From assembly GCA_030295235.1 (NCBI GenBank), contig AP026155.1, positions 124,001 to 188,000 of the forward strand: a stretch of DNA of 64,000 nucleotides, given 5' to 3'. Position 1 is the stretch's first letter. Each line of letters opens with the position of its first letter. This stretch comes from Fistulifera solaris. Lineage: Eukaryota. The position numbers were made by a program, and so were the translations under genes. The notes below the pieces were generated by a model. The model did no database searches and had not been told where the DNA came from. It saw nothing but the letters and a program-made list of their open reading frames with translations. This document shows, in pieces, positions 54,392-59,369 of the stretch.

Positions 54392-57250
54392 ATGACGAAG
54401 AAAGAGGTAGTTCAAGAGAAAATGGCAGAGCAAAGAAAGGGGGAAGAAGCCTCTGCAGAAGATGAAAGCAAGGCAAATGAGAGCAGTACGAAACCTCCTC
54501 CATGGGATGTGGCGACAGTGGACGCATTATTTCCGCAAGCCGCCGCTCTTTCTGTAGCGGTGTGGTTACTTCTTGTCGTTCTTGTTACCACACAAACACC
54601 ACTCGAATATCACGAAATACTTCGAAACGAAGAACGAGTCGCTACATTTCTGTCTGCCGTCGTCATGTTTGTGACGCTTCTGGCGTTGCTGATGCCCTCT
54701 TTGCTATTCAAAAGTCCTACCCCAGCGGTATTGTGATTGCCGGTACCGCCGTCTGCTTTGTCGCCATGTGCACCAATCTACTCATGTGTCTTCGTCCCAC
54801 GGTGGTCGTTGTCGATCCGGTCACGAAAGCGCGCGTCTTTCTCCTCCGTTGGTGCGAATGGATACCACTTGGTGGTCTCATGACGTTCCTCTCCGAAGCG
54901 GTCTATGTGAGTGCCGAGACGGGAGGCATGGAGGGAGCTCTTTCTCGACTCTGTGTCAAACTCTGTCGATTGTCAATGGTATGATCTTTCCCCTCTGCAA
55001 CGATGTGGTGGTCTGGCGGTGCGTGTTTGTTTTTAGCTTCGTGACCTATACCGACATATTCCGTCGTGTATATATAAAACGAAAGGCCTATTTACAAAGC
55101 ATCCAAAAGAGTGAAGGCGTTCAGGATGAAAAACTACAAGATCAAGTCAAATTCGCGTATTTCCTTCTTTTGGCTTGCAGTATTGTGTGGTCGGTGCTGG
55201 TGGTTCTGTATTGTATCAATGTATGGATCCACACTCTGCCGGACTTGGAGACAAAATGGTATTACCGGGAGTCTCTCGCCATGATCGTAGATACGTCCTT
55301 TGACGTGCTGGCCAAGTCTGTCTACATGAAGTTAATTACCGATATTCATCAAGCGCTCTTCGACGAAACATACCAATGGAGAAAGCAGCTCACGGAAATG
55401 CGGCAACTGATCAGTGTCATGTGGGATTCGAGTTCCGATATCATTCTCATTTCAATTCGAACCAATCAAGCTTTATCGGCCATCTTATCACCGGCTTTCT
55501 TTCCGCTGGTAGGCGCCAAGCTGCCAGAATCGTTGCATAGAGGGGGCTCTGAAGTGGCGTTAATGTGTTCCGTCGACAGTTCGGGGCAAATTAAATGCGA
55601 CTATGTAGAGACAATTGATATACTCGTGGATCCACAACGCAATCATAAAATATTGCAGTGTGCCGAAAATCGAGAATCGGTATTGAAAGGGGCGAAAGAG
55701 CTTTTGAAATTGACTTGGAATTGCACAGTCGCGAAAGGAGTGTCAACTCCGTTGTTGGAGCATCCGCTTGACGGAGAAGACGGTATTATTCGACAATCGG
55801 AGATAAAAATATCATACTATTCTGAATCTGCCCGAGTAGGAGTCATTCGGGATGTTTCTGAACGGTATCTTCGGCTGGAAGCGGAACGAAAGGCGCACAT
55901 GGAAATGGTGGCGCGACAAAAAGACGCTCAAGCTGTCAATCGCTTCACCCGGCATGAAGTCAAGAATGGCTTATTAGAGGGGATTGAGCTATGTGATAGC
56001 CTTCGTTCGGCTGTGGAAGATCTTGTTGCTCAGGCCTCTATGGCTCCAACTCCGTCCAACTCAAGCCAGAGGAAAAGAAATGGCAGGGCTGGAAAAGAGT
56101 CCGATCGCGAAGTTGGTAGTCGCGCGGTCAGTGCTCTGACACGACGTTTTATCGAGGATCTTGATTACAATTTGCATAGCGTCTTGGACTGTGTTCTCGC
56201 CGAGGCAATGGCGAGAGACGTGGTCCATGGTGATTACAAGCCGAGACATGAAAGGATTGATGTAAAGGGAGTGCTTTCACATCCTGGACTTGGGATTGGA
56301 TTTACCGACAAATTCCCGATTGAAGTTTTGGGCGGGCCATTACCGTACGTAAGCTTGGATGCCCAACTGCTACGGCACATTCACCGAAATGCATTGTCAA
56401 ATGCATGCAAGTATGGCAAGGCAGGAGGGAAGGTTGTGACACAGTTATCTTTTGATTCACTTAGTAGGACGTTCACCATCAACGTGATTAACGAGCCGGG
56501 AGAGATGCATTCGAAGCTAGTAAGCATGGGAGAATCAGCAAAGGCGGCCGTCTTTCAACAAGGTGCTAGATTACACTCTCACTTGAACCTTGAAACTGGA
56601 CATATTTCTTCTGGCGATGGCGCATGGATCATGCAAAAATGTGCCAAAACACTCGACGGAGAATGCCAGATTGAATTTTTGGAAGACAAGACGGTATTTA
56701 CATTCTCTTGTCCGGCCCAGCCGCTCGTAGTAACGGATTGGAGCAAAACACAAGACTTTGAGGTTCCAACCAATACTTGGGGGTTGCGATTGATGATTCC
56801 AAAATTCAAAGACGGCTGCTGTCACGTATCTTCTTGTTCGCTGGCGTTCAGGAATCTAAAACTGTTGTTTTGGGGGAATCGTACTCGGAAGTAGCAGAAT
56901 TCAAAGAGAAGGTCCTTTCACTTGTTAAGGAATATCCCGACGATAGAATATTGATTCTGGTCGATGAAAATTTGGACTTTGGAAAAAGCAACGAAACGCC
57001 TCACGTCATGTCTGGATCGTTGTTGATGCAAGAAATCCTAAAATCAATGTCGCCAACCGAGGAGCAACATGTTCTTGCTCTAGTTCGGTCGGCAAACGAC
57101 TCGGCAGAAGAAACGGAACTATACTGCGAACGGACACATGGTTTCTTCCCCAAGGGTCCCTTACAGCGCGATCGAGTACGAGAAATTCTTGCTCCCCTGT
57201 GGGCCGATCGATTCATGAGAACCGACCTACAAGCAGCATCTTTATCGTAG
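54392..57250 (+). CDS. Hybrid sensor histidine kinase with an N-terminal microbial-rhodopsin-like domain (Rh, PAS-like, HisKA, HATPase, REC)
   Basis: LRWCEWIP (54847-54861) and FDVLAKSVY (K codon 55314-55316); FTRHEVKNGL (His codon 55953); NALSNACKYG; SSGDGAW; IDDS...LVDENL...RSAN...PK. Joining the ORFs requires frameshifts near 54713, 54940 and 56780. Confidence 0.85.
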
Positions 57251-57553
57251 ACTTCGGCATTGTGCGATAGGGCGTACATTCCGTGAGTGTTCGTTCGATT
57301 GCCTCCAGTGTATGAGTGAAAGCTTCTTCCCTACTCGTTTCGAGAAATCAAAAGTATTGGCAAGAATTTGTCTCCTTTCGCAATTTTTGCAATTTTCGTT
57401 CAAGTTTTCGCCGGTCGCCTAGTCAACCTTTTGTGAATGAAACACAGGCAATGCGCTCCATGGCGGGGGCTGAAACCTGGAACGGAATATATTGCTCGCA
57501 GCACTGACATATTGTGGAGCAGCACAGTAAAGCGTAATTAATAATAAAAGTAA

Positions 57554-57612
57554 GATTCTTGTGCTCAGTGTGTCATCGCCGATACAGGCTTGATTACTCT
57601 TCATTCAAAATC
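57554..57612 (-). promoter_or_regulatory. Candidate SECIS element (form II-like)
   Basis: Minus strand: gattttga-ATGA-agagtaatc-AA-gcc tgtatc ggc-gatgacacac-TGAG-cacaagaatc. The AUGA/GA core, apical AA and mini-stem are present, but helix II is short (9 nt) and imperfect. Confidence 0.45.
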
Positions 57613-57783
57613 CAGATTGGCCCAAGTTGTGTCGCTCCAACAAAGCCAGATTTGGTGTTTGTAGTCAAAAGAAGGGATCTACCCCGCTCGAGAGGGTGAC
57701 CTCCATTTCGTCATTCCTTCCGAAAAAAGGTAAATTTAGACCGTATCCAAGTATCAGCAATGAAATCAATTATTTACTCCTTC

Positions 57784-58165
57784 TTAGTCCTGTAAAAGCT
57801 CTTCGAGTCGCGTGACAATGGCTTCCCTCTCTCTCAACGATTCCGCTTTCCCTTGTCCTCCGTGTCGCTTCGAATGCAACACTTCACCCGTCTCAATGAC
57901 GGTCACTTCGAATTTTCCCGTCACCATGGGATCTTTCTTTCCGATCACAGCGACGCGATCAATTAGTTTGGGTTGTTTTGAAAGATAATCTTTCAAGGCC
58001 CGGAACTGTTTCCCGTAGCCTGTAATAGTTTTGATTAATGAAGCAGGACGTAAAAAGGCGGTCATGAGATTGAAAATGAATTTGGAAGGATTTTTGCAAC
58101 AAATTCATTTCCTCTTAGCCTCACCCGCCTCAATATTGCACTTGAATAGTAATAGTAGAGGTCAT
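57784..58165 (-). CDS. SelW/Rdx-family selenoprotein with a UxxU motif
   Basis: Exon 1 reads ATG..CAA TAT TGA GGC GGG TGA G, then intron 58020-58119, then exon 2 GC TAC GGG... The product is MTSTITIQVQY-U-GG-U-GYGKQF...TGKFEVTV...VLHSKRHGGQG. Confidence 0.85.
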
Positions 58166-58280
58166 TGTCCAATGAACAATTGTGATATGATGCAATGTTG
58201 TTCTAAATGAATGTTTGCACAAAGATACGAAAGGGACGACGATCGCGAATCATCGCGAGCACAGAAAAATCACTTGTGAC

Positions 58281-58303
58281 TCATGACTGAAATTCAGTCC
58301 TGA
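58281..58303 (+). promoter_or_regulatory. Palindromic motif copy 5
   Basis: tcatgactgaaattcagtcctga, about 115 bp upstream of the SelW-like ATG. Confidence 0.5.
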
Positions 58304-59369
58304 TATAACGTTTGCCTGGTCTACACTATGGGCAATACTAAAGACGCGGATCGTTTAGGTTCCTTCATTCCCTTGTCTAGAGGTGCATTGTAGATGCACA
58401 AATGCAATAAAAACAGAACCTCTTGTTAAACTTGTGGTTGGAAACAACTTATATCAAATTCAAGAAGAAGAAGAAGAAGAAAGCCTTACACTCTCTGTAT
58501 CACAAGAGCGAGAATGGTATGGGAGAAACTCATTCACGACTGCATTATAAACCCAGTCACGCCAAAGTTCGCTTACACCTTGGTACTATAGTCGCACGTA
58601 TGTCAGATACGGTAGTAGTAGTTTCTTTTGGCGGGGACGACGACGCGAGCACGCATGCTAATAAATACGGAGTACGGAGTAAAAAAGAGTCTTTGACTTT
58701 TTTGACCATGGCGACGACATCCGACCTACAACAATAGCAGCAATTTAAGTAGCTGTTCGATGATGATTCGACTCGGACGAACTACATTCCTCTCCTCTTT
58801 CGTGTAGCATCAGAATTTACGGCGTATAGCCGCTGCAAAGAAAGAGATCGCGCAATTCCTGCCTTTTCAATCATTTTAAATTGCTCGATCTCATCGTTTC
58901 AATTGACAAAGCCGTTACTGACTGTAGTATCATATGTGTTGCCTAACGCTGAACATGAGCCTTCCATCTGCGAATGTTGACTTTAATCATGTTACGGCAA
59001 AAATGGAGGGAGGAAAGGCAACTTTTGAGCCGTCAACAACTCCGTGAACGCAGTTGCATGCTTTTGTTTGTCACCCTCTGGGCAGCGAAGCGGAGAAGGA
59101 ACTGCCCCATGATGCCGCCGTATCACTATTTGTTCCGAATTTACCGTCAATGATGCCATAATCAGCCTGTTCCGGGCTTCTGATCCCTATTTATATTTTG
59201 AGAACCCTATCCAGGTGCCCAGAAGTCGTCGAATTCGAAAACGATTCTCGCGACGAAAGAAATAGCCTCGGAATTCCATCGACGAGAAGTCCATAGGTTG
59301 ATTCAGTTTGACTGATAAACCACAATCTCGTTCATGCATTATTCTTGCATAAAGAAATTGAAACTCATC

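Follow-up and report, generated by a model that had tools for sequence, protein, structure and literature searches.

On the minus strand of the window, the whole stretch of 64,000 nucleotides that was analysed, positions 58165-57784 are probably occupied by a nuclear gene with two exons, from a diatom-type organism, that would encode a real SelW-like protein of 93 residues with two selenocysteine (Sec, U) residues, its redox motif reading UGGU and not CGGU. Comparison with related loci showed that the double TGA, placed at both redox positions of the family, was kept together with the intron place in two clearly different sequences. Few selenoproteins are as widespread as those of the SelW-like kind, whose function has yet to be clarified.

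The two TGA codons (58132-58130 and 58123-58121) are found 11 codons past the ATG and 100 nt before an open reading frame of the SelW/Rdx family, and an earlier note on this DNA had their letters and coordinates right, provided that the minus strand is read. This strand runs ATG (58165-58163) ACC TCT ACT ATT ACT ATT CAA GTG CAA TAT, the first TGA, GGC GGG, the second TGA and a single G (58120), then GCTAAG; the stretch 3′ of the second TGA-G is GCTAAGAGG. Translated with TGA as U, exon 1 gives MTSTITIQVQYUGGU. The stop-to-stop list of open reading frames held 57784..58104 alone at the locus (106 aa), in agreement with the remark of the earlier note that exon 2 was the only part visible there. 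The conserved part of this 106-aa frame begins with GC TAC GGG (58019), behind ...TTACAG (ending at 58020), and the exon 2 frame corresponds to (G)YGKQFRALKDYL...TGKFEVTV...LHSK...LLQD, with the YGKQF start and the stop TAA at its end. Exon 2 is an intact frame of 77 codons in which 16 of 16 invariant columns were kept, and its TGKFEV has a K where 22 of the 23 aligned sequences have N (TGNFEV). The motif TGAGGNGGNTGAGG occurred once in the 64-kb window against an expectation of 0.03 (100 shuffles, with a match in 3 of them), and the search for its Cys version, TGY-GGN-GGN-TGA-G, gave no match anywhere in the window. The features of the locus are collected in Table 1.

Table 1. Features of the SelW-like locus, one-base differences between the window and the contig of public run X1, and the motif region in the window and its two closest relatives. 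Positions are those of the window; a slash marks the exon-intron boundary.
Feature	Position	Strand	Remarks
Exon 1, coding part	58120..58165	-	ATG, 14 codons and first base of a Gly codon; IQVQY and motif common to L001, L002 and L003
First TGA	58130..58132	-	Place of the resolving Cys of CxxU; TGA in L001 and L002, TGT/TGC in 9 of 11 loci; unsubstituted in the X1 contig
Second TGA	58121..58123	-	Canonical Sec of CxxU, directly before G-Y; TGA in 11 of 11 related loci
Phase-1 intron, 100 nt, predicted	58020..58119	-	GC-AG (GCTAAG...TTACAG); sole pair giving UGGUGY in frame
Exon 2, coding part	57784..58019	-	Includes stop TAA (57786-57784); 88% identical to P0002
Candidate SECIS element	57660..57722	-	GGAATGAC (ATGA 57714-57711), helix GAAA-(T)-GGAGG / CCTTC-TTTT, GA 57666-57665
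X1 difference	behind 57666		An additional T, in the T-run preceding the GA of the SECIS candidate
X1 difference	behind 58090		One more A, in the intron
X1 difference	58119/58120		One G fewer, at the GC donor
Motif region, window			CAA GTG CAA TAT TGA GGC GGG TGA G/GCTAAG
Motif region, L001			CAA GTC CAA TAC TGA GGA GGA TGA G/GTACGA
Motif region, L002			CAA GTG CAG TAC TGA GGC GGA TGA G/GTGCGT

The assignment of the gene to the SelW/Rdx family, already made in the earlier note, was borne out by profile and structure searches. Exon 2 on its own reached 13.2 bits against Pfam Rdx (PF10262; E=0.1), under the cut-off of 22.6, because the N-terminal strand and the motif sit on exon 1; the three uninterrupted relatives L010, L005 and L006, read with TGA as a residue, all passed the same cut-off (54, 47.5 and 45.8 bits, respectively). 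In the search with the exon 2 protein, all 25 of 25 candidates qualified as homologues at E<=0.01, Seminavis being among their sources, and the best reached 1.9e-36 with 88% identity (P0002). Ten of them reached the G-Y dipeptide, each with unrelated residues in front of it and none running on into a Cys motif, and the remaining 15 began farther downstream; that all these database gene models break at the same place is what a TGA in front of G-Y would predict. A family profile made of the window's exon 2 and 22 relatives (23 sequences) matched a single solved structure, mouse selenoprotein W (2npb_A, 2NPB; E=3.7e-7), and in this alignment G-Y stood directly behind the Sec13 place, the residue before G-Y in 2npb_A being Sec13 of the native selenoprotein W. 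The place of the first TGA is that of Cys10 of mammalian SelW. After splicing, the redox motif would read IQVQY-U-G-G-U-G-Y, the UxxU variant of CxxU/CxxC followed by G-Y/F, and the match to 2NPB suggests for the product the thioredoxin-like beta-alpha-beta-beta-beta-alpha fold of the SelW/Rdx type.

Mammalian selenoprotein W (2NPB, PF10262) and the predicted protein share the G-Y behind Sec, the TGxFEVTV and HSK motifs and a length of about 90 residues, and the SECIS element in the 3′ UTR of the former has its counterpart in a SECIS candidate in the 3′ UTR of the latter. They differ in the motif itself, the mammalian protein being of the CxxU type, with a selenenylsulfide, and the window protein UxxU; moreover, the conserved acidic helix at the C-terminus (GQGKAES..ER..I...ELL) is longer in the diatom-type clade described below. 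The best match, P0002, shares a 90% cluster with P0027, a Fistulifera solaris protein, under the UniRef name 'Selenoprotein W'. This cluster member is the hypothetical protein FisN_19Hu076 (GAX19501.1), whose public model lacks the first exon and opens with apparently intron-derived residues (MTARRSCFHA) right before GY. Diatom gene models of the SelW-like family, the public Fistulifera solaris one among them, are thus truncated at the Sec codons.

The letters of the locus were compared with those of the public run X1. Its contigs over 57300-58450 had no substitutions and covered gene and spacer evenly, at a depth of about 15-16, which makes the run DNA-like; two other runs, X2 and X3, had no contig on this stretch. 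In the contig covering 57438-58166 (729 nt), from a run that may be the window's own source data, no letter was substituted and both TGAs were seen again. The earlier note had named TGT or TGC at 58132-58130 as the sign of an ordinary CxxU protein, and no read-derived contig showed either. Contig and window were separated by three one-base differences, all in homopolymer runs; such indels, with not one substitution beside them, have the look of a technology artefact in the data of either the window or the contig. Both data sets may be the one that carries homopolymer errors, which matters for frame-based readings elsewhere in the window. In favour of the window's letters, TGAGG plus T/C equals in length the TGAGGT of the relatives, and the window has open reading frames of up to 926 aa, which would not be possible with 3 indels in every 730 nt; against them, the extra T of X1 improves the fit of the SECIS candidate to the geometry seen in the relatives. 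As a separate observation, X1 record 6 (window 58140-58192) contained a second, about 10% divergent copy beside the ATG, with 5 other letters in 53 followed by a loose end, and junction pieces of 32-33 nt (57436-57467 and 58137-58169) had a double depth of about 30. Together these suggest two divergent haplotypes, homeologues or paralogues of the locus.

The conservation of the double TGA was followed in the DNA of relatives by a metagenome scan, which gave 11 loci from 80 pattern matches (L007/L008 and L009/L011 being duplicate pairs); a scan of viral contigs found no relative of the gene. At the second motif position TGA was present in 11 of the 11 loci. The first position was TGT or TGC in nine (L003-L011), making an ordinary CxxU, and TGA at both positions was found in two, L001 and L002, those with the highest exon 2 identity to the window (49% and 57%, respectively). 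The synonymous bases around the motif vary among the three sequences while both TGAs stay, which would not be expected of a sequencing error and speaks for selection acting on the first TGA. The placement of the TGAs at the two redox positions, as the earlier note had it, stands, with G-Y behind the Sec13 place and the double TGA retained in the two closest of the 11 loci. It could be supposed that the first TGA does not encode Sec at all, translation ending at codon 12 with an 11-residue peptide, or that it is a sequencing error for TGY in the gene of an ordinary CxxU SelW, as the TGY at that place in nine of the 11 loci would favour. However, the X1 contig shows the same TGA, two independent relatives have it within other synonymous flanks, and a terminator would not be kept across 43-51% divergence with the downstream frame intact, so that this explanation is judged very improbable.

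The 19-row tree placed the window together with L001, L002 and L003 (the last with CGGU) in one diatom-type clade of 14 rows, supported but unstarred (84/96), with unresolved branching inside the clade and CxxU in every row outside it; the tree includes 10 database rows without a known motif and leaves out the 15 homologues that begin downstream of G-Y. Three UGGU sequences are known so far, those of the window, L001 and L002, and by this tree their motif may go back to one origin or to more than one. It may be proposed, tentatively and with some doubt, that the diatom-type SelW-like clade, as a whole or in large part, uses UGGU as a conserved diselenide motif. Other features were observed in the related loci. 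In both L005 and L006, the Rdx domain is preceded by some 100 residues of a long N-terminal extension. The L005 gene, of the CGGU type, appears to carry in its 3′ UTR, about 41-100 and 181-240 nt after the stop, two ATGA...TTGA hairpins of near-identical apical sequence (…TTGGGTCTGTTT…), possibly two SECIS elements. In L009, a tRNA gene (63 bits) was found at 2172-2245, about 0.5 kb downstream of the SelW-like gene; ARAGORN found no tRNA within the window.

Splicing was assessed by enumeration of all GT/GC donors and AG acceptors reaching the conserved C-terminal part. With the window as given, nine pairs were in frame, and UGGUGY came from TGAG/GCTAAG with TTACAG/GC alone, giving a predicted product of 93 residues with IQVQY-U-G-G-U-GY. 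The donor GTGAGG, which the earlier note had raised as a site that could remove the second TGA, was rejected, since it yielded no in-frame product with any AG acceptor. In L001, L002, L003 and L009, a phase-1 intron lies directly after TGA-G, with GT donors and an acceptor restoring G-Y/F, and the predicted window intron (58119-58020) has the same place and phase, its donor being GC and not GT. GC-AG introns are functional in eukaryotes. In the X1-like version, with one G fewer, no donor/acceptor pair yielded UGGUGY. Hence, the splicing to YUGGUGY put forward in the earlier note is predicted for the window as given, by the in-frame junction of donor 58119 and acceptor 58020 at a conserved intron place, but the donor is a GC and X1 is one G short exactly there. 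It is mainly because of this conflicting G at 58119/58120 that the two-Sec reading is rated as probable and no higher.

The repeated TGAGGC of exon 1 offers a second way to splice. An upstream GC donor, TAT TGA G/GCGGGT, used with the same acceptor, would give the single-Sec product MTSTITIQVQY-U-GYGKQF..., in which the Sec has no resolving partner. With this pair the frame is kept whether the letters of the window or those of the X1-like version are used; for the X1-like letters it was the only pair found to keep G-Y behind Sec without an insertion, and all three X1 indels would then be non-coding. Yet GCGGGT is a poor donor, the equivalent site in L001 is GA and unusable, the four-residue motif (C/U)-x-x-U is kept by all relatives, and three residues of the active-site turn would be missing from such a protein. 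Little credence is accordingly given to it, and the two-Sec product of the downstream donor is preferred. On the same pre-mRNA, a hairpin was noted at 58056-58131 (minus strand) in which the TGA/donor stretch GAGGCGGGUGAGG pairs with the intron segment CCUCAUGACCGCCUU through a 13-bp inner stem (MFE -26.8 kcal/mol, z -2.62; 4 of 200 shuffles folded equally well). A similar pairing was present in L001, but the z-scores of the relatives were not significant, and the hairpin was therefore given no weight in the interpretation. A weak Rfam match to mir-962 (E=0.097) coincides with this hairpin; both it and a snoRNA-like match were rejected as below the thresholds of their families.

The decoding of UGA as Sec calls attention to the 3′ UTR. 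The Rfam SECIS families gave no score on the window (1.9 kb at E up to 10) nor on 101 nt around the candidate described here, and the same models gave no score in nine related loci, including L005, L006 and L010, whose CGGU messages are uninterrupted. The blank on the window is thus uninformative, the models being blind to this group, and Rfam SECIS models can be said to miss the SECIS elements of the diatom-type SelW-like genes. The 3′ UTRs of the window, L001, L004 and L009 share GGAATGAC (GGAATGAC/T in general form), with GGAATGAT in L002 and AGAATGAC in L003, and this shared element opens a hairpin of the form ATGA-N-helix-...-helix-N-GA. A SECIS descriptor was derived from the relatives (ATGA-N-helix-N-GA, with a helix of at least 7 pairs and at most one 1-nt bulge), and it matched once in each of the 3′ UTRs of seven of eight relatives, L010 being missed.

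The corresponding hairpin of the window lies 72 nt beyond the stop and forms 9 pairs (GAAA/TTTT, a bulged T and GGAGG/CCTTC), provided that either the unpaired 3′ N is left out or the additional T from X1 is taken in; as given, it takes the geometry of the relatives only with a shifted or 2-nt bulge. The background at 9 or more pairs was 3 sites (strict) or 8 (relaxed, candidate included) per 128 kb, and GGAATGAY occurred 6 times per 128 kb, from which the chance of their co-occurrence within 300 nt of the stop is estimated to be of the order of 1e-3 or less. The stability of the hairpin was ordinary (z -0.40; 71 of 200 shuffles folded equally well), helix I was not evident and there was no unpaired AA 5′ of the apical part. 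The hairpin is consequently regarded as a candidate SECIS element.

Several of these findings could also be read as signs of decay, the locus being a silent copy of a UGGU SelW-like gene whose splice donor was weakened or destroyed, and its SECIS possibly weakened, while a second, divergent copy does the work. Such a copy would account for the GC in place of the GT donor of L001, L002, L003 and L009, for the G missing from the X1 contig, which removes every UGGUGY splice, for the K at a position that is N in nearly all aligned sequences (22 of 23), for a SECIS geometry off by one base as given, and for the roughly 10% divergent copy that X1 shows next to the ATG. Nevertheless, exon 2 is intact over its 77 codons, 88% identical to its nearest relative and unchanged in all 16 invariant columns, and exon 1 retained the ATG, IQVQY and both TGAs. 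GC-AG introns, as a matter of general knowledge, work in eukaryotes, and the X1 differences, all in homopolymers and none a substitution, have the look of a sequencing artefact. Decay is for these reasons considered unlikely, and a working two-Sec gene remains the preferred explanation.

In the working gene proposed here, the pre-mRNA would be spliced at TGA-G/GCTAAG...TTACAG/GC through a GC-AG intron, and both UGAs, three codons apart, would be recoded as selenocysteine by the eukaryotic Sec machinery, with a single kink-turn hairpin of the SECIS type, some 72 nt past the stop, directing the recoding of both. The two Sec residues, which would lie where helix 1 starts, may then alternate between a pair of selenols and a diselenide in the manner of selenoprotein L, and diselenide formation by the UGGU protein would take the place of the selenenylsulfide that ordinary SelW forms. 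The first Sec would most likely go back to a TGY codon that became TGA when the gene was already equipped with a functional SECIS. Selenoprotein L, described by Shchedrina and co-workers (2007; cited in PMC3473315 and PMC2398784), reportedly has a UxxU redox motif served by one SECIS, with a diselenide proposed as its oxidised form. The likeness between it and the predicted protein, a UxxU motif served by one SECIS, concerns the mechanism only, since selenoprotein L is peroxiredoxin-like and not Rdx, whereas the sole solved-structure match of the window protein was SelW and the sole Pfam match Rdx.

The view of the earlier note that UxxU is known mainly from selenoprotein L was incomplete, since UxxU SELENOW is described from amphioxus and Ostreococcus lucimarinus. 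It is treated by Lobanov et al. 2007 (PMC2375036), where a SelW-like protein with two predicted Sec residues is given, by Jiang et al. in 2012 (PMC3473315) and again in 2020 (PMC7539508), the last of these papers also mentioning an algal protein with a GUGUU motif; no SelW is listed for Thalassiosira pseudonana by Lobanov et al. (PMC2375036). As described there, the amphioxus and O. lucimarinus proteins resemble the one predicted here in being SelW/Rdx proteins with a second Sec in place of the Cys of CxxU, and they were explained, as is proposed here, by a Cys-to-Sec change upstream of an existing SECIS. Compared by description, they are single cases from a cephalochordate and a green alga, whereas UGGU was found here in three diatom-type sequences 49-57% identical. 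No diatom UxxU SELENOW was found in the main texts of the literature searched, and the supplements of the 2020 algal survey (PMC7539508) may list one; the Fistulifera solaris protein GAX19501.1 is in the same 90% cluster as P0002, but its public model is without the first exon. The novelty is therefore modest: the UxxU kind of SELENOW is already known, to which a member from diatoms would now be added, along with the finding that UGGU recurs among three sequences that have diverged.

The gain is incremental, the kind of protein being already in print. If the clade-wide use of UGGU proposed above is true, this would be the first Rdx lineage with a UxxU centre held by selection across species, not a singleton. 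Its redox chemistry would be distinct from that of CxxU SelW, and one unusually long SECIS hairpin, lacking the unpaired AA, would have to serve efficiently for the decoding of two UGAs that are three codons apart. The UGGU and CGGU orthologues would also offer a natural comparison for the role of the resolving residue, and the locus would illustrate how Cys-to-Sec gains may arise once a SECIS is present.

Further observations concern the surroundings of the gene in the window. About 300 nt upstream of the ATG, on the minus strand, a CTT/GAA trinucleotide run (cttcttcttcttcttctt) was found at about 58462-58482. On the other side, a large convergent neighbour gene occupies 54693-57250 of the plus strand and ends about 530 nt from the SelW-like stop; the last piece of its open reading frame (56762-57250) resembles, by eye, a response-regulator receiver domain (…ILILVDENLDFG…).
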